Assembly: GCA_913020715.1 (NCBI GenBank) | Contig: CAJVZH010000007.1 | Coordinates: 13,021 to 77,020, forward strand | DNA length: 64,000 nt | Source: an uncultured Gammaproteobacteria bacterium | GTDB taxonomy: Bacteria > Pseudomonadota > Gammaproteobacteria > PS1 > Pseudothioglobaceae | Direction: 5' to 3' | Shown: positions 11,097 to 37,193 of the stretch, in pieces | How positions within the stretch are numbered: the stretch's first letter is position 1 | How the letters are laid out: every line of letters begins with the position of its first letter | Position numbers and translations under genes: made by a program | Notes under the pieces: model-generated | What the model saw: only the letters and a program-made list of their open reading frames with translations | Databases searched by the model: none | What the model was told of the DNA's origin: nothing

Positions 11097-11173
11097 AGTC
11101 GCGTAGCTCAGTTGGTTAGAGCACTACCTTGACATGGTAGGGGTCGGTGATTCGAATTCACTCGCGACTACCA
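11097..11173 (+). tRNA. tRNA-Val(GAC)
   Basis: Acceptor AGTCGCG/CGCGACT, anticodon arm CTACC-TTGACAT-GGTAG, TTCGAAT loop, CCA. Confidence 0.97.
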
Positions 11174-12858: not shown

Positions 12859-13623
12859 CTAGTATTTACCACTCAATAACTCACCTGCTTCAGGAACATA
12901 AGTGCTCAAATTAAGTGATTTTAACATCTGCCAAGTAGTACAAATAGAGGAGCTAGTAACTGGTATTTGTAATATTTTTTCAACTTTGGCCACTGCGGCT
13001 AATGAAGGCATTTGCACACAAGCTGAGAGCACCAACACATCAATACCTTCCGTATCGACTTTTTTGAAGTGCTCAAGCAGGTTGTTTGGATCTTGCGCGG
13101 CAACCTCCAGATTATCTGGGATTTCAAGTGCAAGATAATCTTTTACTTTTATACCCTCTGATTCAATGTAGTCAACAACAAGTCTTGCCAAAGAGTCCAT
13201 ATAGGGACAAACAAAAGAAATGGTTTTGGCGCCCAGAGCGTGCAAGCCATCAATCAATGCGCCGGCACTGGTTACCACGGGCGCTGCCGCGTTATTTTCT
13301 TCAGTTATTTTTTGTAAGTTGAGCTGCGCATTTCGGTGGTAACCATTGCCCATTGACATAATGGCTACTAAGCAGGCATAGCCAAGAACGTCCATTCTGG
13401 CGTCAGACAGTTCGAGTGCGCAGCGGCCAGAATCAGCATCCATTGCTTGAAGCTCTTCTTTGGTTACATTTTTCATTCGCATACGACTTGAATGGAATGA
13501 AAAGCGCTCGGGTGAAATCCCTTCTCGGGCTCTAAGCATTGCTGGTATTTCGGTTTCCATTGTGACATTTGAGCTGGGCACAATTTGTCCAACTCTAATT
13601 AAGTTATTTTTCATTTTGCTCAT
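12859..13623 (-). CDS. maiA: Maleate cis-trans isomerase (Asp/Glu racemase fold)
   Basis: GQIVPSSNVTMETE, YACLVA and LSACVQMPS catalytic Cys pair, typical of MaiA/NicE. Confidence 0.85.
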   Translation of the reverse strand: MSKMKNNLIRVGQIVPSSNVTMETEIPAMLRAREGISPERFSFHSSRMRMKNVTKEELQAMDADSGRCALELSDARMDVLGYACLVAIMSMGNGYHRNAQLNLQKITEENNAAAPVVTSAGALIDGLHALGAKTISFVCPYMDSLARLVVDYIESEGIKVKDYLALEIPDNLEVAAQDPNNLLEHFKKVDTEGIDVLVLSACVQMPSLAAVAKVEKILQIPVTSSSICTTWQMLKSLNLSTYVPEAGELLSGKY

Positions 13624-14531
13624 CCTTTTATAACGGGGTTACGAATAGTGCCAATGCCCTCTATACCTGCCTCAATAATATCACCTGGCCACATCCATTC
13701 TTGTGGATCGCGCCCTGCGCCCACCCCTGATGGCGTTCCGGTGGCAATAATATCCCCTGGCTCTAAACGCATGCCGCTGCTAATATCTGCAATTAATTCA
13801 GGTATTTTAAAAAGCATAAATTTGGTATTAGAGTTTTGTTTCATCTCTCCGTTTTTCTTTAACCAAAGGTTAAGGTTGTGAGGATCTTTGACTTCATCAG
13901 CGGTGACGATGATCGGCCCCATTGGTGCGAAGCTATCCTGCCCTTTGGAAACAATCCATTGGCCCGCCCGCCTACAATCTCTTGCAGAAACATCGTTAAT
14001 AATTGTGTAACCAAAGACATGATTGAGTGCGTCTTCTTTAGGAATTGAGGATCCACCACTGCCGATAATGACTGCTAACTCAACCTCCCAATCGAGCTGT
14101 TGAGTAAGTGAGTTTCGATGCACAATCGGGCTATTCCAAGAAGTTACAGTTGTGGGTGGCTTTGTAAAAATAACCGGTTCTTGTGGAAGTTCTGCTGAGG
14201 TGTCGAGACTTCTGGCAGACTCAGCAACATGCTCAGTGTAGTTTAATCCAATGCCAAAAATATTCTTTTGCGGCCTGGGAATTGGCGCCAAAAAACGGGT
14301 ATCTGAAACCGCTGAAGTTGTACCTGCTGGCCAGTTGCCTTGATATTGCTTAATCAATTCCCCAAGTCGGGTTTTCGCCGAAATACCAGCATCGATAAAT
14401 GATTGCATGGTTGCCGGCAAATACTCGCCGGCTATTTCAGCCAAAAGATTAACATCGATAACTATATTGTCATCAATATATCCTAATCTGGCTTGTTCGT
14501 CTATTTTGATTCTGTATGTTGCGAGCTTCAT
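13620..14531 (-). CDS. Fumarylacetoacetate-hydrolase-family protein
   Basis: GIGLNYTEH, LDWEVEL, NDVSARD, SKGQDSF and PGDIIATGTPSGVG. Confidence 0.92.
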   Translation of the reverse strand: MKLATYRIKIDEQARLGYIDDNIVIDVNLLAEIAGEYLPATMQSFIDAGISAKTRLGELIKQYQGNWPAGTTSAVSDTRFLAPIPRPQKNIFGIGLNYTEHVAESARSLDTSAELPQEPVIFTKPPTTVTSWNSPIVHRNSLTQQLDWEVELAVIIGSGGSSIPKEDALNHVFGYTIINDVSARDCRRAGQWIVSKGQDSFAPMGPIIVTADEVKDPHNLNLWLKKNGEMKQNSNTKFMLFKIPELIADISSGMRLEPGDIIATGTPSGVGAGRDPQEWMWPGDIIEAGIEGIGTIRNPVIKG

Positions 14532-14555
14532 AGTTGGGTCCTATAAATATAAAAA

Positions 14556-15674
14556 TTAAATAACCTGTTGGTGTCCATTATTTTGTTGATAAGGTTCTTC
14601 GAGATAAAATCCAAGTTTATCCATCACGGGAAAATCATTAAAAGAAAATAAACAGGCGTCATCAGAAGATGAGCTGTTTTTGTGCTCGTGCCAATGCCAA
14701 GAAGGCACACAGAATATGTCTTTTTCTTTCCAGTGAAACTCCTTGCCGTTGATAATCGATGTGCCAGAACCTTTAGCCACATTGTAGATAACATTACCTG
14801 TATGTCGGTGCGCTTTAGTGTGTTCTGCGGGACGCAGCATTTGCATGGAGGCGCTCATGGTTTGCATAATATAGCCTCCGTCCTTGGGGTTACTGTATCG
14901 CATTATAATGCCGTCAAAAGGGCATCCATCAGAGGCCTTAGCGTAATTTTGAAGTCCTTCATATGTTTCATCCCAACCAAACCGCATCAGAGGTGAGTAG
15001 GGTTTAGCCCATTTGTCATTAGCCGGGATTAAACCAGGAGAGCCGTAAATTAATGGAGAGTCATTAGTGGTGTATTTTGGCGTTTGAAAAATATCTTTAT
15101 GCACTGCGTAGTAATTAGCCTCCAATGCATTGGTAAGTGGGATGTCTAAGCCATCCTGCCAAATGGACGTTTTTCCTTCGTCATTTACACCGTGATCATG
15201 CCATGTGCCATTGGGTGTAATCACAAAATCGCGTGCACCAAACTCAATCTTATGGCCGTCAACTACTGTATATGCGCCAGCGCCTTCCATAATAAATCTC
15301 AGAGCGGAAGCGGCGTGTTTGTGCGCTGAGGTTTTTTCTCCGGGTTTCATAATTTGAATGCCACTAAACAGCCAACCACAAGCGGCACTCACCTCAGTGC
15401 GTTTTGGATTTTTTAGGTAGACCACCCTCCTGCCTGCTTTTTCGGGTGAAACCAGCTCAGAAGCCTTAACGACATAGGGACGAATGTCTTCAAATTTCCA
15501 TAAAACAGGTATAGAGTGTGCTGTGGGCTCCCAGGGCTCGATGTCATTGGCAACAGTCCATAGTGCACCGGTGTTGAATTGATTCAACTCTTTATAGTAA
15601 GATTTAAGTTGATCATCATCAGTGACAATGGCGCGGCCAATTTGGTTGTCTCTACCATCCGTTCTATTGCTCAT
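14556..15674 (-). CDS. Bicupin ring-cleavage dioxygenase, gentisate 1,2-dioxygenase family
   Basis: SGIQIMKPGE-x3-AHKH-x3-ALRFIMEG and TPNGTWHDH (HxH...H Fe ligands); second cupin AHRH...WHWHEH. Confidence 0.88.
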   Translation of the reverse strand: MSNRTDGRDNQIGRAIVTDDDQLKSYYKELNQFNTGALWTVANDIEPWEPTAHSIPVLWKFEDIRPYVVKASELVSPEKAGRRVVYLKNPKRTEVSAACGWLFSGIQIMKPGEKTSAHKHAASALRFIMEGAGAYTVVDGHKIEFGARDFVITPNGTWHDHGVNDEGKTSIWQDGLDIPLTNALEANYYAVHKDIFQTPKYTTNDSPLIYGSPGLIPANDKWAKPYSPLMRFGWDETYEGLQNYAKASDGCPFDGIIMRYSNPKDGGYIMQTMSASMQMLRPAEHTKAHRHTGNVIYNVAKGSGTSIINGKEFHWKEKDIFCVPSWHWHEHKNSSSSDDACLFSFNDFPVMDKLGFYLEEPYQQNNGHQQVI

Positions 15675-15710
15675 AAATATGCCTCGTTGGTTCCAAAGGT
15701 GGTTTCTTCT

Positions 15711-17324
15711 TTATTTTTTTAGCGAAAATCGTTGGATTTTCCCTGTCGCCGTTTTAGGAATGGATTCACAAAACACTATGGATCGAGGGTACTTGTAAGG
15801 CGCAATCAACTCTTTAACATGATTTTGCAGAATCTCAATAGTTTTGTTATTTTTCGCTTGATCCGATACAAGCACAATATGCGCTTGGACAATGCTACCT
15901 CGATCTTCATCATCGACACCAATAACAGCGCATTCATCTACGAACGGATGTTGCAGAAGTGCCGCCTCAACATCGGGAGCAGCAATGTTGTACCCCGATG
16001 AAATAATCATGTCATCATTGCGTGCAACAAAATGAAATGCGCCTGATTTGTCCATGGTAAAGCAATCGCCAGTCATATTCCAGCCATTTTTTACATAAGT
16101 TGTTTGGCGCTTATCTGCCAAATATCTACAACCCGTTGGACCCTTAATCGCAAGTTTTCCAATTGTGTTCGGAGGCGCTTCATTTCCGTCTTCATCAAGA
16201 ATAATTGCTTTATAGCCTGCGACTGGTTTTCCAGTACAAGAGGCTTGGTGATTGTCGGTTCGATTTGAAATAAAAATATGGAGCAATTCAGTTGCTCCAA
16301 TGCCATCAACCAGTGGTTTGCCAGTGGTATCAATCCAATCCTGATAAATGGAGGCGGGCAAAGTTTCGCCAGCAGAAACGGCTACACGCAACGTGGATAG
16401 GTCAGCACCTTCTTTTATTGCTGATAACATCACTTTATAGGCAGTAGGAGCAGTAAAACAAATGGTGGCTTTATATTTCTCAATCATGTCTATCAGCCCC
16501 TCAGGGGATGCTTGTTCGATTAGTGTTGCAGTCGCGCCAAAACGCAGTGGAAAGACCGCCAGACCCCCTAAACCAAAAGTGAAGGCAAGTGGTGGTGAAC
16601 CAATAAAAACATCTTTAGGGGTAACTTGTAGCACTTCTTTAGCATAAGTGTCGGCGATAGTCAGTAGGTCGCGATGAAAATGCATTGTTGCCTTGGGTTC
16701 ACCAGTAGTGCCTGAAGTAAAGCCTAAAAGGGCAACATCGTCACTACTAGTTTGGACAGCATTAAAATTAACGGACTTCTCCAACGCTAACTCGTCCAGC
16801 TCGGCCTCGTGGTTTGAAGTGCCATCAAAGCCCACTATTTGTTTAAGAAACGGGCTGTCGTTCGCACAATCATTTAATTCGTCCAACAGTCGGGTATCGC
16901 AAAGGGCAAAGTGAATTTGTGCCTTGTTTACAATTTTGCTTAATTCTCCAGATCGGAGCATGGGCATTGTATTAACAACAACCGCACCGACTTTTGTCGC
17001 TGCTAACCAGCAAGCGACCATTGCGGGGTTATTTGCGGATCGAATTAATACACGATTCCCCGACTCAATCTTATACTCCTCCAACAGAACGTTTGCTAGT
17101 CGATTGCTCCAGTCTGTCAACTCCTTATAAGTTCTTCTTCGGCCATTTCCTATTAAGGCAGTGTGGTCTCCAAAGCCGCTCTCAACCATCGTATCGGTTA
17201 GTTCATGGGCAATATTTAGTTGATCAGGGTAGTTGAAATTTTCTAATAATAGCTCTGGCCATTCAGAGGCTGGCGGTAAATTATCCCTCGAAAAAGTGTC
17301 GGTGTGTTGCGTCGGATTTAGCAT
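15711..17324 (-). CDS. Anthranilate (2-aminobenzoate)-CoA ligase, benzoate-CoA ligase family
   Basis: FTSGTTGEPK, SPPLAFTFGLGG, DGIGATELLHIF and TATGKIQRF. N-terminus (HTDTFSRDNLPP...YPDQLN) resembles AbmG-type ligases. Confidence 0.85.
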   Translation of the reverse strand: MLNPTQHTDTFSRDNLPPASEWPELLLENFNYPDQLNIAHELTDTMVESGFGDHTALIGNGRRRTYKELTDWSNRLANVLLEEYKIESGNRVLIRSANNPAMVACWLAATKVGAVVVNTMPMLRSGELSKIVNKAQIHFALCDTRLLDELNDCANDSPFLKQIVGFDGTSNHEAELDELALEKSVNFNAVQTSSDDVALLGFTSGTTGEPKATMHFHRDLLTIADTYAKEVLQVTPKDVFIGSPPLAFTFGLGGLAVFPLRFGATATLIEQASPEGLIDMIEKYKATICFTAPTAYKVMLSAIKEGADLSTLRVAVSAGETLPASIYQDWIDTTGKPLVDGIGATELLHIFISNRTDNHQASCTGKPVAGYKAIILDEDGNEAPPNTIGKLAIKGPTGCRYLADKRQTTYVKNGWNMTGDCFTMDKSGAFHFVARNDDMIISSGYNIAAPDVEAALLQHPFVDECAVIGVDDEDRGSIVQAHIVLVSDQAKNNKTIEILQNHVKELIAPYKYPRSIVFCESIPKTATGKIQRFSLKK

Positions 17325-17325
17325 C

Positions 17326-17805
17326 TTACTCTCCTTTCACCACTTTTAATTTTTCTTGTTTATCTGATTTGTTTTTCAGCAGTTGTTGAGAAATTCCCTC
17401 TAAAGACTCACTTAAGTAAATCGTCTCATTCTCGGGCAAGTGCTCTAGTAACTCGTTAATCCATTCTTTGTGAGCATTTGCTTGACGAGAAAATTCAAGT
17501 CGTCCTTTTTCGCTCAGGGCAACTTTAAGAATTCGTCGATCACCTATAACCGAACTTCTATCAACTAAGCCTTCAGAGCATAGGCGGTCTACAATGCCGG
17601 TTACATTGCCATTTGAAACTCTCAGTGCTCCAGAAAGTTGACTCATTTTTAAGCCCTCTGGATTTTGACTAAGTGCGGCCATCACATCAAAGCGAGGCAG
17701 GGTTGTGTTAAAGTTTGTGGCAAAGCGCTCTCGCATCTCGGCCTCAATTAAACGGGATGTTTTTAGTAAACGCAACCACAGACGTATAGGGTTTTTTTTA
17801 TCCAT
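17326..17805 (-). CDS. MarR-family transcriptional regulator of the abm-type locus
   Basis: IRLWLRLLK, TLPRFDVMAAL, VSNGNVTGIVDRL and DRR wing. Confidence 0.92.
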   Translation of the reverse strand: MDKKNPIRLWLRLLKTSRLIEAEMRERFATNFNTTLPRFDVMAALSQNPEGLKMSQLSGALRVSNGNVTGIVDRLCSEGLVDRSSVIGDRRILKVALSEKGRLEFSRQANAHKEWINELLEHLPENETIYLSESLEGISQQLLKNKSDKQEKLKVVKGE

Positions 17806-17847
17806 AACAAGTATCCTTTTGATAAGTTTTTTTAATTTTACTAATAG

Positions 17848-20145
17848 TTAGGCCCTTAAAATCACATCCGTTTCTTTTTTAGATACGGCTCGAGCTTGTT
17901 TACTGCCTTCGAGATAGGGCAATGGCGCTTGTAGGCAGGCGTCTCCAATAGAAATTCCTTCATTAATAACCCAATAAGGATTAAGTAGTTGTGCCCTTCC
18001 AATACAAACCAGGTCCGCTCTACCTGCTAAAAGAATAGAGTTTGCATGATCAGCTTTATAAATGTTGCCTACAGCCATTGTCGGCACATGAGCCTCGTTT
18101 CTGATCATGTCTGAGAATGGAGTCTGATACATTCGACCATAAACGGGTTTACATTCATTGGAAGTTTCGCCAGATGAAACATTAATAATATCGGCGCCTG
18201 CTTTTTTGAACATTTTAGCCACTTGAAGTCCGTCTTTTGGTAAGAGGCCGGCTTCGCCCAGCCAATCATGAGCAGAGATTCGGACCGATATCGGCATGTT
18301 TTTGGTTAGAGCATTGCGTATTGCCTGAAAAACTGCCAAGGGGTAGCGCATACGATTTTCAAGACTTGCGCCATAGCGGTCTTTCCTTTGGTTGGAAATC
18401 GGGGAAATAAAAGAAGAAAGCAAATAACCATGGCCAGCTTGAAGTTCAATCATATCAAAACCAGCCGATTCTGCCATCAGCGCAGCCTTAACAAACCCCT
18501 GGCAGACTTCATCCATCTCACTCTCGCTAATTTCTTGCGGTATTGCGTTGTCACTCGACCAAGTAATTGCTGATGCTGACACCAAAGGCCAATTGCCGGA
18601 TTCTAACGGTAAGTTTGAATTTTCCCAACCAACTTGACTTGATCCGCGTCGACCAGCATGGCCTATTTGACAGCAAACTTTTGCATAAGTTTGTTGGTGT
18701 ATAAAATCCACTATCCTGCCCCATTCTTTTTCGTGATTTGGCTGATAAAGTCCGGCACAGTTTGGGGTAATACGGCCAGATTCACAAACAGCGACCATCT
18801 CAGTGCATATCAAGCCAGCACCGCCTTTGGCTCGTTCAGTATAATGAGTAAAATGCCAATCATTAACACAGCCGTTTTGGGCTTTAAAGGTAGCTATAGC
18901 AGGGAATACAATACGGTTTATTAAGGTTAAGTTGCCCAAAGTAAAGGGCGTAAACATAGGGGATCGAGTTGGTTGATTTGAGTCGACAGCCGATTGTTTT
19001 TGAAACCAGTTTTCAGCACTATTTAGCCAAAGTGGGTCGCGTAAACGCAGGTTTTCATGACTAATGCGTTGCGACCTAGTAAGTAGCGAATAACTAAATT
19101 GAATTGGCTCAAAATCAATATAGCGCTCTATATTTTCAAACCATTCAAGACTGTTTCTTGCTGCCGATTGCAATCTTAGCACCTCCACCCTTCTTTCTTC
19201 TTGGTAGCGTTTAAATGCGAGCCCCATTGAGGGTTCTGAATGTAGGTAGTCTGCCAGCGCGATAGCGCTATCAAATGCTAGGCGAGTGCCGGACCCTATG
19301 GAGAAGTGAGCAGTTGCTGCGGAGTCTCCAATAAGAACAACATTTTTGTAATACCATTTTTCACATACAATTCTTGGGAAGTTCATCCATACAGCCGAGC
19401 CCCTCAAGTGTTCTGCGTTTGACTCAAGCGCATGGCTGCCCAGGTGTTTTTTGAAGATTTCTTCACAGACCTTAACTGATTCTTCTTTTGACATGCTTTC
19501 AAAACCAGTAGCCTCCCATGTCTCCTGAGAGCACTCAACAATAAAAGTAGCGGTATTGTTGTCGAACTGATAAACATGGCCCCAAAACCATCCATGTTCA
19601 GTTTGCTCAAAAATAAAAGTAAAGGCGCCGTCAAATTCTTGCTTTGTGCCCAGCCAAATAAATTTGCAAAGCCTAGTGTCAATATTTGGCTTAAATCTGT
19701 CGTTGTATTCACCCCTTGGTTGTGAGTTGATGCCATCAGTAGCAACAACCAGATCGTATTGGTGACGGTAATCTTCAGCCGAGGCGAAGGTTTTCTCAAA
19801 TTGAAGGACAACGCCAAGCTCTCGTGCACGTTGTTGGAGTATTATTAGCAATTTTTTTCTCCCAATCCCCGCAAAACCGTGGCCACTTGAAACGATTCTA
19901 TTGCCTTTAATGGTCACGGCAAGATCGTCCCAATAAGAGAAGTTATCTCGAATTTGGTTTGCGCTTATTGAATCATTTTTTTGAAGATTTTCTAAGGCGT
20001 CATCCGAAAGTACGACGCCCCAGCCAAAAGTGTCATTTGCCTTGTTTCTTTCTATGACAGTTACCTCGTGCAAGGGATTTCTGAGCTTCATAGAAATGGC
20101 AAAATAGAGACCAGCAGGGCCGCCTCCAAGACACACAATACGCAT
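17848..20145 (-). CDS. abmA: Bifunctional anthraniloyl/salicylyl-CoA 5-monooxygenase with OYE-like oxidoreductase domain (AbmA/SdgC family)
   Basis: N-terminal GGGPAGLY, TFGWGVV, GDSAATAHFSIGSGT and YSLLTRSQRISHENLRLRD; C-terminal old-yellow-enzyme TIM barrel (GHGYLLSSFISP, SLENRMR). Confidence 0.88.
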   Translation of the reverse strand: MRIVCLGGGPAGLYFAISMKLRNPLHEVTVIERNKANDTFGWGVVLSDDALENLQKNDSISANQIRDNFSYWDDLAVTIKGNRIVSSGHGFAGIGRKKLLIILQQRARELGVVLQFEKTFASAEDYRHQYDLVVATDGINSQPRGEYNDRFKPNIDTRLCKFIWLGTKQEFDGAFTFIFEQTEHGWFWGHVYQFDNNTATFIVECSQETWEATGFESMSKEESVKVCEEIFKKHLGSHALESNAEHLRGSAVWMNFPRIVCEKWYYKNVVLIGDSAATAHFSIGSGTRLAFDSAIALADYLHSEPSMGLAFKRYQEERRVEVLRLQSAARNSLEWFENIERYIDFEPIQFSYSLLTRSQRISHENLRLRDPLWLNSAENWFQKQSAVDSNQPTRSPMFTPFTLGNLTLINRIVFPAIATFKAQNGCVNDWHFTHYTERAKGGAGLICTEMVAVCESGRITPNCAGLYQPNHEKEWGRIVDFIHQQTYAKVCCQIGHAGRRGSSQVGWENSNLPLESGNWPLVSASAITWSSDNAIPQEISESEMDEVCQGFVKAALMAESAGFDMIELQAGHGYLLSSFISPISNQRKDRYGASLENRMRYPLAVFQAIRNALTKNMPISVRISAHDWLGEAGLLPKDGLQVAKMFKKAGADIINVSSGETSNECKPVYGRMYQTPFSDMIRNEAHVPTMAVGNIYKADHANSILLAGRADLVCIGRAQLLNPYWVINEGISIGDACLQAPLPYLEGSKQARAVSKKETDVILRA

Positions 20146-20199
20146 AATTTCACACTATTTTTTAAATTCTAATAAAACAATTATACATAAATGACAAAT

Positions 20200-20219
20200 A
20201 TATTTTAAGTATAAAATAT
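20200..20219. promoter_or_regulatory. Palindromic operator candidate ATATTTTA-AGTA-TAAAATAT in the divergent promoter region
   Basis: Perfect 8-bp inverted repeat with a 4-nt spacer between abmA and the thioesterase; the same motif recurs at 34138-34157. Confidence 0.6.
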
Positions 20220-20318
20220 TAATTATAAAGGCCGGATCAACATGTGTATAATCCATTATAAGTTGCACATTGTTGGCTTAAGATAGGCACTTATTTATAT
20301 TTTTGGAATTAAGTTATT

Positions 20319-20726
20319 GTGGCATTCTCTGTTAATCAAAAAGTCCTTTTTAGGCACTGCGATCCTGCAGGAATCGTCTTTTATCCCAGGTATTATGAGA
20401 TGATGAACGATTGTGTGGAGGAGTTTTTTGATAAAACGCTTGGCTTTCCATTTAATGAACTACACGAGATTGGTGGTGTTCCGACGGCCAAGATCGAAAC
20501 CAAGTTTACCGCGCCGAGTCGGCAAGGCGATATATTGGAAATAGTGCTAAGATGCCTTAGGCTTGGGAATAGCAGCTTGAGCATACGAATAACTGCACGT
20601 TGCGGGGAAGAATTGCGATTTCAATCTGACTCAACGTTGGTGTTTATTGATAGAAGTGGCAAGCCTCAATCTTGGCATGCAAAAGTGGCACAGCTATTGG
20701 CGAAGTGTGTAAAGGAAGATTGTTAG
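20319..20726 (+). CDS. 4-hydroxybenzoyl-CoA-type (hotdog-fold) thioesterase
   Basis: FRHCDPAGIVFYPRYYEM with catalytic Asp; FTAPSRQGD. Confidence 0.9.
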   Translation: MAFSVNQKVLFRHCDPAGIVFYPRYYEMMNDCVEEFFDKTLGFPFNELHEIGGVPTAKIETKFTAPSRQGDILEIVLRCLRLGNSSLSIRITARCGEELRFQSDSTLVFIDRSGKPQSWHAKVAQLLAKCVKEDC

Positions 20727-20806
20727 GGTCTTTTGTTGAGCATCTACGCAAAAGTTAAGCGCGTGATTATTGCGCATTTTTTCATACTTTATTAAGGAGT
20801 TTGGAC

Positions 20807-21085
20807 ATGGTTTCTTCGATTGTGCTAATGAAAATTGAGAAAAACAAGGTGGGTGAGGTTGCTGAAAAGTTAACTGATATTCAGGGGGTCAGTGAAGTGT
20901 TTTCGGTCGCTGGGCGTTGCGATTTGGTGTGCATGGTTCGAGTGGCTGATAATGAGCAATTAGCTGAAGCTGTTACTGAAAGAGTTCTGAAGGTTGAAGG
21001 GGTGCTTGAAACAGAAACTATGATTGCGTTTCGTGTTTTTTCTAAGCACGATTTAGAGGGTATGTTTTCGGTAGGCCTTAACTAG
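20807..21085 (+). CDS. Stand-alone Lrp/AsnC ligand-binding-domain protein (no HTH)
   Basis: 92 aa after SD AAGGAG; EVFSVAGRCDLVCMVRV...VLKVEGVLETETMIAF matches the Lrp C-terminal RAM domain. Confidence 0.8.
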   Translation: MVSSIVLMKIEKNKVGEVAEKLTDIQGVSEVFSVAGRCDLVCMVRVADNEQLAEAVTERVLKVEGVLETETMIAFRVFSKHDLEGMFSVGLN

Positions 21086-21111
21086 TATTGGTATATTGAA
21101 AGAGTTAAATT

Positions 21112-22134
21112 ATGGATATTAATCTTCCTATCTTTAAGGCAGCGGCCGTTCAAGATTCTCCTGTATTTTTGAATGTTGATGCCACGATCGACAAAGTGTG
21201 TGCAATTATTGCAAAAGCAAGCGCTAACGGCGCCGACTTAGTGGCTTTTCCAGAAGTTTTTGTTTCGGGATACCCTTATTGGAATTGGATTATGAGCCCT
21301 ATTGATGGAGGCAAATGGTACGAAAAACTTTACCGTAATTCCATTGACGTACCCGGCCCCGCTGTAGAAAGAATATATCAAGCAGCCAAAGAGCATAATG
21401 TTGTTGTAGTTATCGGTGTTAACGAACGAGGCTCTCGTAGTTTGGGTGTTATTTACAATACAGTCTTGGTGATAAGTGAGCAAGGCGAACTTATTGGCAA
21501 GCATAGAAAATTAGTGCCCACTTGGGCTGAAAAGCTCACTTGGACAGGTGGAGATGGCTCCTCCTTAAATGTACATGATACAAAGGTAGGTCCTTTGGGC
21601 GTATTGGCTTGTGGTGAAAATACAAATACATTGGCTCGTTTTGCTCTCTTGGCGCAAGGTGAGTTGGTGCATGTTTCAAATTATATTGCCTTGCCGACTG
21701 CACCAAAAGACTACGATATGGCTAGAGCAATTGAAATTAGGACGGCCGCACATGCTTTTGAAGGGAAGGTTTTCAATATTACATCCTGTTCCACTATTTC
21801 TGAATACATGATCGAGCAGATGGAGCAAGATTGCCCAAATGCCCGCCAACTATTAACTCGAAGTCGAGGCTCTTGGACTGGCGTTATTGGGCCAGACGGT
21901 CAAGTCATTGGCGAGCCGCTGATTGACAAAGAGGGCATTGTTTACGCGGACATTAATCTTTCAAAATGCATACAACCTAAACAAATGCATGACATTGTTG
22001 GGCATTATAATCGTTTTGATATATTCGACTTTAAAGTTAATAAGTCCCCCCAGGAGGCGGTCTCTTTCACAACAAAAAACATCAGTGAAAAAAGTGGTGA
22101 AAACGAAGATACTGAAGATGATAGTAGCCTCTAA
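21112..22134 (+). CDS. Nitrilase / carbon-nitrogen hydrolase family protein
   Basis: Catalytic triad FPE, HRKLVPTWAEK and LACGENTN. Confidence 0.92.
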   Translation: MDINLPIFKAAAVQDSPVFLNVDATIDKVCAIIAKASANGADLVAFPEVFVSGYPYWNWIMSPIDGGKWYEKLYRNSIDVPGPAVERIYQAAKEHNVVVVIGVNERGSRSLGVIYNTVLVISEQGELIGKHRKLVPTWAEKLTWTGGDGSSLNVHDTKVGPLGVLACGENTNTLARFALLAQGELVHVSNYIALPTAPKDYDMARAIEIRTAAHAFEGKVFNITSCSTISEYMIEQMEQDCPNARQLLTRSRGSWTGVIGPDGQVIGEPLIDKEGIVYADINLSKCIQPKQMHDIVGHYNRFDIFDFKVNKSPQEAVSFTTKNISEKSGENEDTEDDSSL

Positions 22135-22167
22135 ACCTAAGACAATGTATTAACCAAGGAATCAGTT

Positions 22168-23364
22168 ATGTCTGCCGAATACATTTGCAAAAAAAACCAT
22201 TTTTATCTACCAGATGACTTGATTTATCTCGATGGAAATTCACTTGGCCCGATGCCTCTTAAGGCTTTGGAGTACATGCCAAGTGTAATGCAAAATCAGT
22301 GGGGCGAAAAGCTTATTGGCGGCTGGAATGATGCCGGCTGGTATGACCAGCCCATAAGGGTTGGAGATCGCATCGCTCGGTTAGTTGGCGCGGACACAGG
22401 CTACATTGTAACGGGTGAAACGCTTTCGATAAAGGTCTACCAAGCGCTGGCTGCAGCCTTAGATATTAATAGTGACAGGCGAGTTATTCTATCTGATAAC
22501 GGCAACTTCCCTACTGATTTATATATTGCTGAAGGACTTATTAAAACCCTTGATAAGGGCCATCAGCTCGCATGCCCTAATCCTGAAGAGGTTGAGGATA
22601 GTATTGATGACTCGGTTGCAGTATTGATGCTTACTGAAGTCGATTATAAAACCTCCAGAAGGCATGACATGAAGCGCTTGACTGAAAAAGCTAGAGAGCA
22701 TGGGGTGATAACAATTTGGGACCTGGCCCACTCAGCAGGAGCTATACCGATTGATTTACAAGGTTGTGACATTGATTTTGCTATAGGTTGTACCTATAAG
22801 TACCTAAATGGTGGCCCCGGTTCTCCCGCTTTTATATATGTTGCGAAGCGGCATTCCAATATAGCCACGCCTGCGCTTTCGGGGTGGATGGGCCATCAAG
22901 CGCCTTTTTCCTTTGAACAAAGCTATCGGGCGCATGAGGGAACAAGTCGCATGCGTGTGGGCACTCCGCCTGTGCTTGCTCTATCCGTGCTTGAAGCCGC
23001 TTTAGATGTGTTTGATGGTGTTGATATGCACACCCTCTATCAGCGATCAAGAGTACTGTCGGAATTGTTTATCAAGGAGGTTATGGGCTCCTGCCCAAGT
23101 CTAATCTTAGCCAGTCCAGAAAAATCTGAATTGCGGGGCTCTCATGTTTCGTTCTATTTCGAGCATGCATTTTCTGCCATTCAAGCTTTGATTGATTTGG
23201 GCGTGGTAGGTGACTTTAGGGCTCCAAATGTGATGAGGTTTGGCATAACGCCTCTATATTTAGAAGAGGCAGACATCTCCCTTGCTGCGCAAAAAATTGC
23301 AAGTGTTGTTAATCAGGGTTTATGGAAAAAACAAATTTATCAAAAAAAAGGGGCGGTAACGTGA
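22168..23364 (+). CDS. kynU: Kynureninase
   Basis: [30 protein letters not shown] (PLP Lys), LSGWMGH and GDFRAP. Confidence 0.95.
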
Positions 23365-24197
23365 GTGAGTACTACAATCCAAAGGCAGATGGCGCACAAA
23401 TGTCTTTTGACGGGCGAATGTCTTACGGTGATTATCTAAATCTTGAGTACATCTTAAATGCACAAAAACCGCTTTCTGGCGCGCATGACGAAATGTTGTT
23501 TATTATTCAGCATCAGACTTCAGAGCTATGGATGAAGCTATGTGTTCACGAGCTTCTTTCTGCTCGTTTAGCTCTGCAAAACGACAACTTGCCGGAATCA
23601 TTTAAAATGCTCACTCGTGTAGCTCGAATAATGGAGCAACTTAATAACGCCTGGGATGTGCTTCGAACAATGACACCAAGCGAGTACACACAGTTTAGAG
23701 ACGACTTGGGTCAAAGTTCAGGATTCCAATCGCACCAATATAGACAAATTGAATTTATCTTGGGAAATAGAAATCGGTCGCTATTAAAGCCGCATGAACA
23801 CCAACCGAGAATACATGAGTTGCTACTTGAGGAATTAGACACGCCCAGCTTGTATGATGAAGTGATATTCTTGCTTAGGCGTCAAGGCTTGGAGATTGAA
23901 GATTGCGCCCTAAAAAGAAATTCTGATCAGCCTTATGAAAGTAATGCAAGCGTATTAAATGCCTGGAGACAGGTATATTTAGACCCGGAAAAGTATTGGT
24001 CTTGTTATGAACTGGGTGAAAAATGTGTTGATGTAGAGGATTATTTTCGGCGATGGCGCTTTAATCATTTAACAACCGTTCAGCGTATTATAGGTTTTAA
24101 ACGTGGTACAGGGGGCACCAGTGGGGTGCACTATTTAAAACGCATGCTTGATGTTGAATTATTCCCAGAGCTTTGGGATGTAAGAACTGAGTTGTAG
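23361..24197 (+). CDS. kynA: Tryptophan 2,3-dioxygenase
   Basis: [31 protein letters not shown] and [17 protein letters not shown] start overlaps the kynU TGA. Confidence 0.96.
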
Positions 24198-24300
24198 GAT
24201 TACTAAGCAAGTTCAAGATATTATTGAAATACTCATAAATGCTTGTACAATGAAATGCGCATAACCACCTCAAAATAGGCGGTGGTGACACGCGTCTTGC

Positions 24301-25122
24301 TTACATGCGGCTAGCAAACAAAAGCTTGCACAGGGGGCTCTCAGCATTGCGAAGTCCATCAATCACATTAAAATGGTGTTTATTTTTATCGATATAAACC
24401 TTATGTGAGATGTCAAAACCTAGCCACATATCCTTAAGAAGTTGGCTTTGACGCAAAAACTCAGGGCGTTCATTTTCGCCCACCCAGCAAACATGCTCAA
24501 TTCCTTTTCGTGGGGATAGTAAAACAGGGCTATGGCTTTGAGCGGTTTCAAAATCAATATTTAATTCTTTGTTCATTTTAGTATGCATGAGGGGCCTAAG
24601 ATCGTAGACACCAGAAATTGACACACACCTCTTAATTTTTTGCTTTGTTGAGATGGATAGATGGGAGTCTGTGCATATTAATCGACTAACAAGAAAACCA
24701 CCCGCAGAGTGGCCAGCAAGATATATCGGCCCATCAATTTCACCAGCAACAACATCAAGAGCTATAGTCGTCTCATCTATTATTTGCGGAATATTTGTGC
24801 CGGGACACAGAGTGTAAGAAATGATAGCCACTGCATATCCACTCTCTAAGCCGCCTTTTGCAAGGTGAGACCAATAACTTTTATCAAAATCAAGCCAGTA
24901 ACCACCATGCACAAAAAACATCAACCCCTTTGGTTTGTCTTTAGGTAGAAAAAGATCGTATTTATTTCTTGTTTTATCGCCATACGGGACGTTAAGCATG
25001 GCTTTGTTGTTTATAGCAACCTCTTCTCTAAATGCCCTGGATTCGTTTTCCCAGCTAGTGATATAGTCGGTTGCCCCCTCTATATAGATAGCATTTGCGA
25101 ATTCATCATCCCAGTTTTTCAA
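24301..25122 (-). CDS. Alpha/beta-hydrolase, probable kynurenine formamidase (arylformamidase)
   Basis: FVHGGYW, GHSAGG nucleophile elbow, SGVYDL and KHHFNVI; adjacent to kynA/kynU. TTG start. Confidence 0.75.
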   Translation of the reverse strand: MKNWDDEFANAIYIEGATDYITSWENESRAFREEVAINNKAMLNVPYGDKTRNKYDLFLPKDKPKGLMFFVHGGYWLDFDKSYWSHLAKGGLESGYAVAIISYTLCPGTNIPQIIDETTIALDVVAGEIDGPIYLAGHSAGGFLVSRLICTDSHLSISTKQKIKRCVSISGVYDLRPLMHTKMNKELNIDFETAQSHSPVLLSPRKGIEHVCWVGENERPEFLRQSQLLKDMWLGFDISHKVYIDKNKHHFNVIDGLRNAESPLCKLLFASRM

Positions 25123-25440: not shown

Positions 25441-26349
25441 TTAGGCCAGCGCCCTCAGCTGCTCAATCAGTTGTTTCCTAGTATTGGTTGGAAAATTAGA
25501 CAAAGCTTGTTGTTCGCTATTTTTTGCAATTTGCAGTAGTTTGGCAACTTTTTTTCTTCCAGCTTCTGTTGCGCTTACAGTGTGCTCATCGTAGTCCAGC
25601 CAGCCTAGCGACTGTAAACTTTCAGCCGCCTCTCTTGCCTCACGCTGGCCACTTAAAATGCGAAAATGCAGACGTGACATATCGACCTGATCTTGATCAT
25701 ACAAGTTAGCCAATATGCGCCAACCTGTAACGCTAAGACCTGCCTCTTCCACAGCTAGGTACAGAACATCTGCAAGTTGCTTGCGAGCTGCCGATAAATG
25801 ATAAAGTAGTAAATCATCGACTGCACTACCCAAACTATCTAGGTCATCACTGACTTGTGGCGGCGGTGCTAGCGCTTCCGCAGTGGCATAACTGCCACCA
25901 GAGAATACCAGTCCACGTTTAGGGCTAGTTGTAAAAGATTGCACTTCAGCGACAATTATCGCATGATCGCCTCCTTCATAAACCGCCCAAGCGCTACATT
26001 GGAATTGGCAAATTGCCCCCCTAAGCATATGACAACCCCCTAGACCAAATTCACTATCAATGCCAGAGAATTTGTCATTGCCCTGCTGGGAAAATTTGTT
26101 CGATAATTGAACCTGATCGGCGCTAAGTACATTGATGCAAAAATGCTTGGCTTCGATAAATGCCTTGGCGCCATGTGCATCGTGAGCCACTGACCAAAGC
26201 ACCAAAGCTGGCTCCAAAGATACTGAATTAAAGCTACTTGCAGTCATGCCAATAGGCTCGCCGTCAGCGTCACAAGTGGTAATGACTGTTACCCCGGTGG
26301 CGAATGTGGCTAGCGCATTTCTAAATTGATTTGTATCAAAATCTAACAT
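25441..26349 (-). CDS. hpaC: Flavin reductase (HpaC-like) fused to a C-terminal MarR-like domain
   Basis: FRNALATFATGVTVIT, GMTASSFNSVSLEP and GGDHAI, followed by about 140 aa of winged-helix-like sequence (LSVTGWRILANL). Confidence 0.8.
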   Translation of the reverse strand: MLDFDTNQFRNALATFATGVTVITTCDADGEPIGMTASSFNSVSLEPALVLWSVAHDAHGAKAFIEAKHFCINVLSADQVQLSNKFSQQGNDKFSGIDSEFGLGGCHMLRGAICQFQCSAWAVYEGGDHAIIVAEVQSFTTSPKRGLVFSGGSYATAEALAPPPQVSDDLDSLGSAVDDLLLYHLSAARKQLADVLYLAVEEAGLSVTGWRILANLYDQDQVDMSRLHFRILSGQREAREAAESLQSLGWLDYDEHTVSATEAGRKKVAKLLQIAKNSEQQALSNFPTNTRKQLIEQLRALA

Positions 26350-26358
26350 CCTGCGCTC

Positions 26359-27795: not shown

Positions 27796-27917
27796 AGTTT
27801 CCTCCTATAAATGAGTGTGAATCAGTCCTTTTCAATCTTGTAAAAAGCGAATTATTCGCGAAAATCCTTCAATATCCATATTAGCTTAAAGATACTTTTA
27901 ATACATAAAATACAAAA

Positions 27918-29208: not shown

Positions 29209-29228
29209 TAAACTTCCTTAATGATTAA

Positions 29229-29283: not shown

Positions 29284-29302
29284 ATTATAATGAATATATT
29301 AC

Positions 29303-34107: not shown

Positions 34108-34168
34108 CTATTTTAATCTTAAAATATTAATATATAAATATTTTAATCTTAAAATATTAATATGTTAA
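34108..34168. repeat. 25-bp direct repeat x2 (30-bp period) built from palindromic boxes upstream of dctP
   Basis: TATTTTAATCTTAAAATATTAATAT at 34109-34133 and 34139-34163; each contains (A)TATTTTA-ATCT-TAAAATAT. Confidence 0.9.
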
Positions 34169-34294: not shown

Positions 34295-35323
34295 ATGGTT
34301 ATTAAAAAACTACTTGCAGGTGGCGCTTTGGTGATATCTGGCGCACTGTTATCTGGTGTTTCTGTCGCAGCTGAAACCCTATTAATGTCATCTTGGTTGC
34401 CGCCCGGGCACCCAGTGGTGGCTGATATTATTAAGCCATGGATCAAGGCCGTAGAAGATGAAAGTAATGGTGAGCTTATTATTCGTCTTTTGCCTAAAGC
34501 CCTTGGCGCGCCCCCAGCTCATTACGACCTTGCTAAAGACGGCGTAGCTGATGTCACATATGGTGTGCATGGTTATCAACCTGGCCGCTTTAAACTCACT
34601 GCAGCCACAGAATTGCCATTCTTAGGTAACAGTGCAGAAGTCGTATCAGTTGCATACTGGCGCATATACAAGAAGCATTTAGAGTCTGTTAACGAGCATG
34701 AAGGTACAGTGCTATTAGGTTTGATGTCCCATGGACCAGGTGTAATTCATAACAACGTACGAGCCATTAACAATGTCGCCGATATGCAGGGCTTAAAGTT
34801 CCGCGTTGGTGGTGGTGTTGCAGGTAATGCCGCTAAGGCGTTAGGTGTAACGGCTATGTTGGCTTCAGCCACTAAGAACTATGAAATGTTGTCTAGCGGC
34901 GTTGCCGACGGCACTTTCTTGCCTACTGAGTCTATTAAGTCGTTTAAGTTAACTAAGTTGTTAAACCATGCCACTAAGGTGCCGGGTGGTTTGTACAACA
35001 CTAGTTTCTTCTTAACTATGAATCCAGCTAAGTTCAGCGGCTTAAGTGCTTCTAACCAGGCTGCGTTAATGCGTGCTTCTGGCGAAAACTTTGCCCGCAT
35101 TGCAGGTCAAGGTTGGGATAAACATGATGCTCTAGGCCAAGCGGCCATGGATGCTGCAGGTATTGCCACTGTAACTGCCGATGCTAGTTTCGTAGCCGAA
35201 ATCAAAGCTGCAACAGGCCACTTGGAATCCGATTGGGTTGCTACGGCTAATGGCTTAGGTGTTGATGGTGCTGCTGTTATGGCAGACCTTCGTGCAGAAA
35301 TTGCTAAAGTAGCTGCTGAGTAA
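34295..35323 (+). CDS. dctP: TRAP transporter substrate-binding protein
   Basis: Signal peptide; SSWLPPGHP, GLKFRVGGG and VPGGLYNTSFF; aromatic-acid-type DctP inferred from context. Confidence 0.9.
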   Translation: MVIKKLLAGGALVISGALLSGVSVAAETLLMSSWLPPGHPVVADIIKPWIKAVEDESNGELIIRLLPKALGAPPAHYDLAKDGVADVTYGVHGYQPGRFKLTAATELPFLGNSAEVVSVAYWRIYKKHLESVNEHEGTVLLGLMSHGPGVIHNNVRAINNVADMQGLKFRVGGGVAGNAAKALGVTAMLASATKNYEMLSSGVADGTFLPTESIKSFKLTKLLNHATKVPGGLYNTSFFLTMNPAKFSGLSASNQAALMRASGENFARIAGQGWDKHDALGQAAMDAAGIATVTADASFVAEIKAATGHLESDWVATANGLGVDGAAVMADLRAEIAKVAAE

Positions 35324-35339
35324 TGTCTCTCAGTAAGAC

Positions 35340-35370
35340 AGGGGGCCGGGTACTTGTATCCGGCCCTTTT
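35340..35370 (+). terminator. GC-rich hairpin with T4 tail between dctP and dctQ
   Basis: GGGCCGGGTA / TATCCGGCCC followed by TTTT. Confidence 0.7.
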
Positions 35371-35853
35371 ATGCAGTTTATACTGCAGCGTATATTGAGT
35401 GGTCTAGCGGCCGCTCTTTTGTTTTTTTTAATGTTGCTAACTTTGGTTGACGTGGTGAGCCGATACATCTTTAATGCGCCAATTAATGGAAGTTTTGAAA
35501 TTACCGAGCTGTTATTGGCGGCGATCATATTTTCGGCTTTGCCGTTAGTATCTGCCAAAGATGACCATATTACGGTGGACCTAATTGACGCCTTTGTGCC
35601 GCGCTTCATTGCCTGGTTAAGGGATGTTGCAATTGCCCTTGCAAGCTTTGTTATGCTGGCTGGTATTAGCTACAGAGTATGGCATAAAGCCTTAGAATCA
35701 GTGCATTATGGTGACCAAACAGCAATGCTGTATTTACCCACTGCACCGGTATTTTTTTATATTAGCATAGCCGTAGGCTTGAGTAGTGTCATTGCCTTAT
35801 TATTGGCTTGTCAATATGCTCGCGCTGGCTTAGCCTCATCTAATCAATCATAA
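35371..35853 (+). CDS. dctQ: TRAP transporter small permease
   Basis: Four TM segments; DVVSRYIFNAPINGSFEITE and DHITVDL. ATG 35371 chosen as start. Confidence 0.9.
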   Translation: MQFILQRILSGLAAALLFFLMLLTLVDVVSRYIFNAPINGSFEITELLLAAIIFSALPLVSAKDDHITVDLIDAFVPRFIAWLRDVAIALASFVMLAGISYRVWHKALESVHYGDQTAMLYLPTAPVFFYISIAVGLSSVIALLLACQYARAGLASSNQS

Positions 35854-35858
35854 CCACT

Positions 35859-37193
35859 ATGTATGAATCTTTAATTGCCTTCGCCGCCATGCTTACCTTG
35901 GTTGTTATGATACGAATGCCCATTGCCTTTGCTATGGGTTTGGTGGGTTTTATTGGTTTTGGTTTAATGACCAGTTTTTCTGGTTCGTTAGCCATGGTCA
36001 GTATTATCACCTACGACACAGGCCTCAATTATGGCTTATCCGTGGTGCCGCTGTTTATTCTTATGGGTAACTTTGTTAACCGCGCAGGCTTGTCAGACGA
36101 GCTATATACCGCTGCGAATGCATTTTTAGGTCATCGTCGTGGTGGCTTGGCTATGGCCACAGTGGTGGCTTGTGGTGGTTTTAGTGCCGTTTGTGGGTCA
36201 AGTTTAGCGACTGCTGCAACCATGTCTAAGGTGGCCATGCCGCCGATGAAAAAGTACGGCTATGATGAAGGTCTAGCCGCAGGCTCAATTGCCGCTGGCG
36301 GCACCTTGGGGATTTTGATTCCCCCTAGTGTGATTCTAATTATTTTTGGCATCATGACCGAAAGTGATATAGGCTTATTGTTTATTGCGGGTATTTTGCC
36401 TGGCTTGTTGGGAGTAATTTTATATCTAGTGGCAGTGCTGGTTACGGTCACTTTAAAGCCCGAAAAAGGCCCGCGTGGCGAACGCTTTAGCTGGCCTCAA
36501 CGTTTACAAGCCCTGTGGGGTGTGTTGGGCGTTTTATCTTTGTTCTTGTTGGTTATTGGTGGTATTTATAGTGGTATTTTTACCCCGACAGAAGCGGCTG
36601 GTATTGGCGCTTCAGGTGCCTTCTTTATTGCGTTAGTACGTCGCCGTTTAACCTGGCACTCTTTGTTCGATACTTTAATCGAAAGTTCCCGTACCACAGC
36701 GATGCTTTTTGTCATCCTTATTGGCGCAGAAATTTTCTCTAATTATGTCAATATTGCTGGTTTACCCGAACTATTGTCTGGTTGGGTAGTGTCCTTCGAC
36801 TTATCGGCTATTGCCGTCATTATCCTCATTATGTTGGTGTACGTGTTATTGGGCACGGTGCTAGAGAGCTTGTCCATGATCATGCTTACGGTGCCTGTGT
36901 TTTATCCTTTAGTTTTGGGTTTAGACTTGGGCGCCTACTCTGCCTCATTGATGGACCCAGAAATGACCCTCATTTGGTTTGGTATTATTGTTGTTGTGAT
37001 AACCGAAATTAGCCTTATCACCCCCCCAGTAGGTCTTAATGTGTTTGTCTTAAAGAGCATGTTGGACGACGTTAAATTAAGTACTATATTCCGTGGTGTA
37101 ACGCCTTTTTGGGTGGTCGATATCATACGCCTGATGGCCTTAATTATGTTGCCTGGGCTGGTGTTATGGCTACCCAAATTGATGGCCAATTAG
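35859..37193 (+). CDS. dctM: TRAP transporter large permease
   Basis: VPLFILMG, GSSLATAATM, GTLGILIPPS, FTPTEAA and ITPPVGLNVF. Confidence 0.95.
   Translation: MYESLIAFAAMLTLVVMIRMPIAFAMGLVGFIGFGLMTSFSGSLAMVSIITYDTGLNYGLSVVPLFILMGNFVNRAGLSDELYTAANAFLGHRRGGLAMATVVACGGFSAVCGSSLATAATMSKVAMPPMKKYGYDEGLAAGSIAAGGTLGILIPPSVILIIFGIMTESDIGLLFIAGILPGLLGVILYLVAVLVTVTLKPEKGPRGERFSWPQRLQALWGVLGVLSLFLLVIGGIYSGIFTPTEAAGIGASGAFFIALVRRRLTWHSLFDTLIESSRTTAMLFVILIGAEIFSNYVNIAGLPELLSGWVVSFDLSAIAVIILIMLVYVLLGTVLESLSMIMLTVPVFYPLVLGLDLGAYSASLMDPEMTLIWFGIIVVVITEISLITPPVGLNVFVLKSMLDDVKLSTIFRGVTPFWVVDIIRLMALIMLPGLVLWLPKLMAN

Follow-up and report, generated by a model that had tools for sequence, protein, structure and literature searches.

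A candidate tryptophan-to-fumarate route through anthraniloyl-CoA in two divergent operons of a marine gammaproteobacterium

What becomes of anthraniloyl-coenzyme A (CoA) after its hydroxylation is an acknowledged gap, and a pathway-annotation paper of 2022 gave "a lack of knowledge" as its reason for omitting the degradation of tryptophan by way of anthraniloyl-CoA monooxygenase/reductase (PMC9007349). This question is raised by a twelve-gene locus at positions 12859–25122 of a stretch of 64,000 nucleotides (the whole stretch is called the window below) from an uncultured gammaproteobacterium of the family Pseudothioglobaceae. The host is marine, and its genome is streamlined (1.55 Mb; 94.7% complete, which applies to all searches of it below). 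Two divergent operons combine predicted genes for anthranilate formation, for its activation and hydroxylation as a CoA ester, and for ring cleavage, together with a nitrilase homologue. The locus and its relatives in other bacteria represent a complete candidate gene set for the missing steps, and the predicted pathway is a new combination of known enzyme families.

Judged from its genes, the locus probably suffices by itself for turning tryptophan into fumarate, pyruvate and ammonia. KynA, an alpha/beta hydrolase and KynU would convert tryptophan to anthranilate, and the ligase would activate this to anthraniloyl-CoA. The fused flavoenzyme would hydroxylate C5 without reducing the ring, and the thioesterase would release 5-hydroxyanthranilate from the aromatic 5-hydroxyanthraniloyl-CoA so formed. 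The gentisate-type cupin would then cleave the C1–C2 bond with the nitrogen still on the molecule; the FAH-family enzyme would remove pyruvate; the nitrilase-family enzyme would convert either maleamate (the C4 amide) or cis-3-cyanoacrylate (the nitrile) to maleate and ammonia; and the isomerase would yield fumarate. The MarR regulator would govern both operons and a TRAP transporter via a common palindrome. The general scheme (anthranilate, CoA-dependent 5-hydroxylation, a gentisate-type cleavage module, and nitrogen freed by a nitrilase homologue) appears likely, and the full version with nitrogen release after ring cleavage is given a probability of about 0.5.

All twelve open reading frames were found exactly at the coordinates given in a preliminary description of this DNA, and the family assignments made there were upheld by profile matches. 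In the order of the window, the locus comprises the following features (FAD, flavin adenine dinucleotide; OYE, old yellow enzyme).

12859..13623, minus strand: maleate cis-trans isomerase of the Asp/Glu-racemase fold (predicted maleate to fumarate); 336.6 bits to P. putida S16 4FQ7
13620..14531, minus strand: FAH-family acylpyruvate hydrolase (predicted release of pyruvate from the ring-cleavage product); PF01557, 234.7 bits
14556..15674, minus strand: gentisate-type bicupin ring-cleaving dioxygenase (candidate substrate 5-hydroxyanthranilate or gentisate); 597.6 bits and 67% identity to GDOsp 3BU7
15711..17324, minus strand: aryl-CoA ligase, probably an anthranilate-CoA ligase; benz_CoA_lig (benzoate-CoA-ligase family), 358 bits
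17326..17805, minus strand: MarR-family regulator; PF01047
17848..20145, minus strand: fused FAD monooxygenase/OYE-like protein (AbmA/SdgC family), predicted anthraniloyl-CoA 5-hydroxylase; NF006101, 1148.6 bits, cut-off 1078
20146..20318, no strand: spacer between the divergent operons, holding the palindrome ATATTTTAAGTATAAAATAT (20200–20219), a probable MarR operator
20319..20726, plus strand: hotdog (4HBT) acyl-CoA thioesterase; PF03061/PF13279
20801..21085, plus strand: stand-alone Lrp/AsnC ligand-binding domain protein of 94 residues; PF01037, 54.8 bits
21112..22134, plus strand: nitrilase-branch CN-hydrolase, predicted ammonia-releasing step; 218 bits to Nit6803 3WUY, Glu-Lys-Cys triad aligned
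22168..23364, plus strand: kynureninase KynU; TIGR01814, 254 bits, cut-off 246
23322..24197, plus strand: tryptophan 2,3-dioxygenase KynA; TIGR03036, 420 bits, cut-off 391
24301..25122, minus strand: alpha/beta-fold hydrolase, candidate N-formylkynurenine formamidase; NF058665, 339.5 bits, converging on kynA

Hydroxylase neighbourhoods and the altered reductase half

A scan of one genome per species yielded 39 loci with a hydroxylase relative covering most or all of its length, and these loci were queried with the proteins of the window and of two reference loci. Two neighbourhood types emerged. Most loci (about two dozen) carried enoyl-CoA hydratase and/or RidA, several with acyl-CoA dehydrogenase in addition, which is the beta-oxidation layout of the Abm type; none of these hydratase/RidA loci carried the cupin, FAH, isomerase or nitrilase gene. 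Nine of the 39 held thioesterase, nitrilase, cupin, FAH and isomerase genes in whole or in part, and none of the nine had hydratase or RidA. These nine ring-cleavage loci belonged to Flavobacterium and to a Chitinophagales and a Spirochaetota metagenome-assembled genome; L025 and L028 were partial only. In the window, the hydroxylase, ligase, MarR regulator and thioesterase were of the beta-oxidation lineage (61–71% identity for hydroxylase and ligase), and the downstream genes were of the ring-cleavage kind (59–67% identity). No homologues of enoyl-CoA hydratase, acyl-CoA dehydrogenase or RidA of the cluster type were detected in the 64-kb window (E ≤ 1e-5).

A rule that the two gene sets are never mixed was rejected by a further locus, L121 (G231:C12:6700-26600, Rhodobacteraceae). 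It possessed a His-type hydroxylase (see below), ligase, hydratase, acyl-CoA dehydrogenase, RidA and thioesterase, and beside this beta-oxidation set lay a more distant set of cupin, FAH, canonical nitrilase and flavin reductase. L121 may be an intermediate stage between both layouts; given this locus, their separation is strong but not absolute.

The assignment of the fused protein to the AbmA type held: the match to NF006101, a model named "salicylyl-CoA 5-hydroxylase/oxidoreductase", exceeded its cut-off and covered residues 1–759 of 765. The reductase half was altered in a way that fits an aromatic rather than a reduced product. The OYE motif was EL-H-x-A-H-G-Y-L without exception in the 28 beta-oxidation-linked sequences. 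It was ELQAGHGYL in the window enzyme and its two closest metagenomic relatives, and ELQAHHG(F/Y)L in most Bacteroidota-type sequences; the first His was thus replaced by Gln in both ring-cleavage lineages, and the window enzyme kept the second His and the Tyr. Among the columns constant in the 28 beta-oxidation-linked sequences, the window enzyme was changed at 13 of the 88 that lie in the OYE domain versus 1 of the 44 in the monooxygenase domain; for the Bacteroidota-type enzymes the values were 10–17 of 88 and 0–3 of 44. Leave-one-out controls differed at 0–5 of about 90 OYE-domain columns.

In a maximum-likelihood tree, the window clade was nested inside the beta-oxidation lineage (support 100/98), and the ring-cleavage clade of Bacteroidota and Spirochaetota was separate (support 100/100). 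Therefore, the exchange of neighbours and the change from His to Gln arose at least twice. For the Azoarcus enzyme, aromatic 5-hydroxyanthraniloyl-CoA was reported as product when reduction was limited (PMC3534580). The altered OYE motif fits such an aromatic 5-hydroxy product, and in our reading both ring-cleavage lineages turned a side reaction of the Azoarcus type into the main one. The thioesterase of the older layout would have been recruited as a pathway enzyme at that point. It was 47–63% identical to the thioesterases in related clusters of both kinds.

Anthranilate was considered the likely substrate, as had been supposed, because the ligase and hydroxylase were 61–71% identical to those of clusters carrying kynU/kynA and RidA genes; the preference of the ligase is predicted from this context. 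The ligase itself was 68–71% identical to the ligases of the Abm-type clusters L013–L016 and L039. Among such clusters (~62% identical), L015 carried kynU and kynA, and L039 carried kynA. The beta-oxidation layout of L015 (Thalassospira) comprised kynU, kynA, alpha/beta hydrolase, MarR and thioesterase genes. The predicted formation of anthranilate by KynA and KynU was supported by scores above the curated cut-offs; the formamidase is a candidate alpha/beta hydrolase only, and genes 45–51% identical to it flank the hydroxylase gene in L014 and L015. Neither a cyclase-type KynB nor, in a search run without a positive control, a 3-hydroxyanthranilate dioxygenase was found in the host genome. The kynU and kynA frames as listed overlap by 43 bases (23322–23364), and the real kynA start may lie further downstream. 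An adjoining position of kyn genes was also sought in Flavobacterium carriers of the cluster and was rejected: four of the five genomes searched had a kynureninase of 29–31% identity at a separate place.

The ring-cleavage module and the proposed release of nitrogen

The nitrilase homologue was closest to solved nitrilases and cyanide dihydratases (180–218 bits), versus 30–43 bits for amidases, and it remained below the cut-off of the Nit6803 equivalog TIGR04048 (252 versus 502 bits). The motif LACGENTNT, replacing the canonical C-W-E, was identical in 120 of 120 best orthologues. The best match of the window protein, at 98% identity, was to one named Candidatus Thioglobus sp., which is probably also the identity of the host; a Bacillus-like origin, suggested by a G+C content of 43%, was rejected on this ground. 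The gene was kept in the cluster at 59–81% identity in loci of Gammaproteobacteria-like, Alphaproteobacteria, Bacteroidota and Spirochaetota origin, and it adjoined the cupin gene in 11 of 13 distinct related clusters with a CGENTN-type orthologue; the remaining two, like the window, had it within the cluster.

Linkage to the hydroxylase was examined in 201 genomes of the genus holding Flavobacterium soli. Both genes occurred in 95 genomes, the nitrilase only in 6, the hydroxylase only in 2, and neither in 98, a count that overstates independence given that genomes within a genus are related, and that shows tight linkage. Of the 95 double carriers, 84 had both genes on a single contig, a median of 4.7 kb apart. 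Family-wide, only 2 of 251 Flavobacteriaceae genomes carried the nitrilase, and the module is therefore a trait of one genus and not of the family. Nitrilase, cupin, FAH and isomerase are kept together as a module, and the Flavobacterium sample shows it closely tied to the CoA-dependent hydroxylase.

The cupin fell below the NCBIfam equivalog cut-offs both for gentisate 1,2-dioxygenase (GDO; TIGR02272, 297.5 versus 442.1) and for the MabB 5-aminosalicylate dioxygenase (266.6 versus 650). The best matches of the FAH enzyme were hydrolases and decarboxylases of 2,4-diketo acids, with only 103 bits to the maleylpyruvate hydrolase 6JVV. The isomerase kept both catalytic-Cys motifs (YACLVAIMSMG and SACVQMPSL) and scored 198 bits to 2XEC.

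Two Rhodobacteraceae loci have the four-gene module of nitrilase, cupin, FAH and isomerase but no CoA-dependent hydroxylase. In L109 its neighbours were a MarR gene and a tryptophan-dioxygenase-like gene, and in L107 (Rhodobacteraceae) the cupin and FAH genes lay beside genes for a Rieske oxygenase, a cyclase and a CoA ligase, which resemble parts of auxin/isatin degradation loci ending in anthranilate. Thus, the module would recur beside different anthranilate-producing modules. In L108 (G122:C98:1-3836), a cupin 93% identical to GDOsp was flanked by a CGENTN nitrilase, FAH and maleate isomerase. Because this near-identical copy sits in such a module, the crystallised GDOsp itself very probably belongs to the nitrilase–cupin–FAH–isomerase system. 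In a sister cupin clade (57–60% identity; Rhodobacteraceae L110, L113 and L114), at about 11.5–12.5 kb (L110, L113) or 8.1–8.9 kb (L114), the genes after the cupin encode FAH, then a canonical CWENYMP nitrilase and a flavin reductase; the stretch examined held no maleate isomerase. TRAP transporter genes lay near the set in L110.

Close relatives of the whole locus were found on metagenomic contigs. With proteins 74–83% identical, these contigs retained the hydroxylase–MarR–ligase–cupin part (with FAH and isomerase where the contig reached) and the divergent thioesterase–AsnC domain–nitrilase part, and an ABC transporter or a three-gene set as in L099 replaced kynU/kynA. In L099 (5454–8997) this set encoded a dienelactone-hydrolase-like protein, a flavin-containing monooxygenase and a short-chain dehydrogenase; it may be a feeder module from indole to anthranilate. 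Copies of the Lrp/AsnC-domain protein, 80–82% identical, lay between thioesterase and nitrilase in L099 and L104–L106, and none was seen in the Flavobacterium clusters examined. The Flavobacterium clusters had an extra flavin reductase gene upstream of the hydroxylase (L032, 9358–9963), and in L032 (13909–15492) and L048 the ligase and thioesterase genes were separated by one for a glutamate-synthase-like FMN protein of 527 residues; both additions were missing from the window.

Three versions of nitrogen release fit the genes: cleavage may yield an amide, cleavage may yield a nitrile, or the amine may be lost beforehand with gentisate as product. Release after cleavage agrees with what nitrilase-superfamily enzymes are known to do. 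Two nitrilase lineages, CGENTN and canonical CWENYMP, were linked to the cupin clade and its sister, and the canonical nitrilases beside the sister cupin–FAH clade fit nitrilase-family chemistry on a cleavage product. In addition, no isochorismatase-family (PF00857, NicF-type) amidase was found in the host genome, and the control search matched 11 of 14 genomes. Since the enzyme belongs to the nitrilase branch, an amide intermediate is no more favoured than a nitrile. For the nitrile, a cyclic imidate would collapse by elimination to cis-3-cyanoacryloylpyruvate and water, and the CGENTN and CWENYMP enzymes would act as true nitrilases on cis-3-cyanoacrylate; this particular variant is quite unlikely.

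Several points weigh against release after cleavage, and most of them favour a rather different end of the pathway, in which gentisate and ammonia arise from 5-hydroxyanthranilate or its CoA ester, either through the nitrilase-family enzyme or through autoxidation to a quinone imine and re-reduction. The cupin would then act as an ordinary GDO and the FAH enzyme as a maleylpyruvate hydrolase, with maleate going to the isomerase. The direct hydrolysis of maleylpyruvate to maleate is said to occur with HbzF of Pseudomonas alcaligenes. In alignment with 2PHD and 2D40, the cupin kept the three Fe-binding His and every conserved residue of the GDO pocket, namely Leu38, Arg83, Gln108, Ala125, Arg127, His162, Trp172, Asp174 and Leu176 in SDO numbering (PMC11264262). 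GDOsp (Silicibacter/Ruegeria pomeroyi, 3BU7) was reported in the literature as a gentisate 1,2-dioxygenase, its 93%-identical relative stands inside the four-gene module, and in the literature covered, to which the original GDOsp paper does not belong, neither a characterisation with substrates besides gentisate nor a discussion of its genomic module or physiological substrate was found. No active-site column of the cupin separated clusters with the nitrilase from those without; all pocket residues were identical, and the one separating column lay outside the known active site. Likewise, no charged position of the FAH enzyme separated these clusters, and one uncharged column did. The nitrilase gene preceded the cupin gene in the CGENTN-type clusters of Flavobacterium and Rhodobacteraceae and stood with the thioesterase in the window, an order that fits action before ring cleavage. 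The thioesterase is no marker of the ring-cleavage route, being found in beta-oxidation-type clusters too, and OYE activity may survive the exchange of His for Gln. An older sequence from anthranilate through 5-hydroxyanthranilate to gentisate exists as well, for which Cain 1968 and Claus & Kutzner 1983 are the references given in reviews; the reviews consulted did not name the enzymes behind it.

Chemistry argues against such an early loss of nitrogen, since the para-hydroxyl disfavours nucleophilic substitution at C2, and we know of no nitrilase-superfamily enzyme that deaminates an arylamine. The link of two nitrilase lineages to the cupin clade is more easily explained by amide or nitrile chemistry, and the cupin score of 297 lay well below the curated GDO cut-off of 442. 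Nitrogen loss before cleavage is considered somewhat unlikely, yet it is a serious rival of the maleamate route. A looser arrangement would make the locus two unrelated systems side by side: an sdg-like conversion of salicylate to gentisate with direct maleylpyruvate hydrolysis, and a kynurenine operon for anthranilate recycling, the nitrilase acting on an unrelated nitrile. The NCBIfam name of the hydroxylase family (salicylyl-CoA 5-hydroxylase), the ligase, hydroxylase, thioesterase and cupin that reportedly make up the sdg pathway of Streptomyces WA46, and the lack of kyn genes near the Flavobacterium clusters agree with it. It leaves a nitrilase kept at 59–81% identity across four groups without a role in a nitrogen-free pathway, though, and it conflicts with the closeness of the window ligase and hydroxylase to RidA/kyn-bearing clusters and with the single intergenic region and conserved palindrome common to both operons, which makes it highly unlikely. 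The flavoenzyme might also still be a classical 2-aminobenzoyl-CoA monooxygenase/reductase, its reduced CoA ester being processed by genes elsewhere and the cupin module serving a side product. Its nesting in the beta-oxidation-linked lineage, its second His and Tyr, and the shared locus of beta-oxidation and cupin–FAH–nitrilase genes in L121 are in line with that proposal; the window's lack of hydratase, acyl-CoA dehydrogenase and cluster-type RidA, the two independent changes of His to Gln, each with the same neighbour swap, and the 13 altered residues of the OYE domain render it extremely unlikely.

Nitrogen release after ring cleavage thus remains the preferred reading, with all substrates and products and the order of the last steps predicted from the genes. 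Of the pathway as drawn in the preliminary description, the anthranilate substrate, the altered reductase, the conserved module and the lack of a NicF-type amidase speak in its favour; the cupin with its full set of GDO residues and a thioesterase that is not specific to the route do not.

Regulation and genomic surroundings

The MarR gene was conserved beside the hydroxylase gene in L013–L017, L021, L039, L099 and L104. The region 20146–20318 had been taken for a shared promoter region. A divergent spacer of 173 bp was confirmed there; its promoter content was inferred, consensus matches being no commoner than in shuffled sequence and hence not evidence. The palindrome within it, ATATTTTA-N4-TAAAATAT (20 bp), had three sites in the whole 1.55-Mb genome, and the reversed control pattern had none; the chance expectation was 0.13 per window. 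The two other sites lay upstream of the TRAP genes, 14 kb from the divergent spacer.

34108..34157, no strand: second and third palindrome sites, upstream of the TRAP genes, at 34108–34127 (one mismatch) and 34138–34157 (exact)
34295..37193, plus strand: TRAP transporter DctP, DctQ and DctM; TRAP_S1 and dctM family matches, palindrome upstream

In L015, L016, L017, L021, L099 and L104, which are four high-G+C alphaproteobacterial loci and two metagenomic relatives, a similar palindrome lay no more than about 100 bp upstream of the hydroxylase gene. The shared palindrome supports its role as MarR operator and places the TRAP transporter, probably, in the same regulon as both operons. Near the related clusters only distant TRAP homologues were found, beside sister-clade modules.

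The full-length fused hydroxylase was absent from all 40 of the relatives of the host that were searched, and because of this absence the locus behaves as an island. A gene for a GlcD-like FAD oxidase (11241–12662) opens it. Just past the TRAP genes, a 131-residue fragment (37399–37794) matched positions 296–413, the C-terminal part, of the glcD model. The gene and the fragment bracket the kyn/abm/hpa/TRAP block, and tRNA-Val (11097–11173) adjoins its left end; the GlcD-like pair and the tRNA may delimit an acquired island. A cluster for homoprotocatechuate (4-hydroxyphenylacetate) degradation (25441–34022) separates the anthranilate locus from the TRAP genes; it includes HpaB, a 302-residue reductase, HpaR, an HpaG-like FAH protein and HpaI.

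Significance and comparison with known systems

A 2015 review listed four aerobic anthranilate routes, none of which is that of the window. Full-text literature searches, whose coverage mostly excluded subscription journals, turned up no paper combining these elements, in agreement with the earlier supposition that the combination is unpublished. The gene set is common: about half of the genomes in one Flavobacterium genus sample had it, and it also occurred in roseobacters, among them the source of the crystallised GDOsp, and in a streamlined marine gammaproteobacterium. The underlying rewiring, loss of the reductase motif together with an exchange of downstream genes, was seen twice. If the pathway is true, it bears on the turnover of nitrogen derived from tryptophan, indole and auxin in sea and soil, and it would provide a physiological role for a large, uniform nitrilase subfamily. 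Should nitrogen leave before cleavage, the locus would instead hold the genetic basis of the older route from anthranilate through 5-hydroxyanthranilate to gentisate. The nitrile variant would represent, as far as known, the first nitrile-making cleavage of an aromatic ring and a widespread physiological role for bacterial nitrilases.

The Abm pathway of Azoarcus evansii shares with the window an aryl-CoA ligase and a fused FAD-monooxygenase/OYE enzyme. There, the 2-aminobenzoate-CoA ligase and the 2-aminobenzoyl-CoA monooxygenase/reductase are followed by beta-oxidation-like steps. Abm-type clusters of Rhodobacteraceae and Thalassospira, 61–71% identical to the window copies, also have MarR, usually the thioesterase, and kyn genes in two cases. 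In contrast to Abm, the window lacks hydratase, acyl-CoA dehydrogenase and RidA, has Gln for His in the OYE motif, and carries cupin, FAH, nitrilase and maleate isomerase downstream.

Streptomyces sp. WA46 is said to convert salicylate to gentisate by a CoA-dependent pathway (sdgABCD), which would have in common with the window a ligase, 5-hydroxylation of an aryl-CoA, a thioesterase and a gentisate-type 1,2-dioxygenase. The context of the window, however, points to anthranilate; nitrilase and maleate isomerase are conserved, and kynurenine genes are attached. A gentisate pathway with direct hydrolysis of maleylpyruvate is likewise ascribed to HbzF of Pseudomonas alcaligenes NCIMB 9867; it resembles the predicted route in an FAH hydrolase after a gentisate-type dioxygenase, in the lack of a maleylpyruvate isomerase, and in its products, a cis-C4 acid and pyruvate. 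The window FAH enzyme is distant from the solved maleylpyruvate hydrolase (103 bits), however, and nitrilase and maleate isomerase are added.

With GDOsp, the window cupin shares 67% identity and the conserved active-site residues. The lower nicotinate/nicotine pathway has the same end from maleate to fumarate, the isomerase scoring 336 bits to Iso of P. putida S16, and maleamate would be a further common intermediate if the preliminary description is right. Unlike that pathway (NicF/Ami, NicE/Iso), the window has a nitrilase-branch enzyme in place of the amidase, and its route would start from a benzoate ring instead of a dihydroxypyridine.

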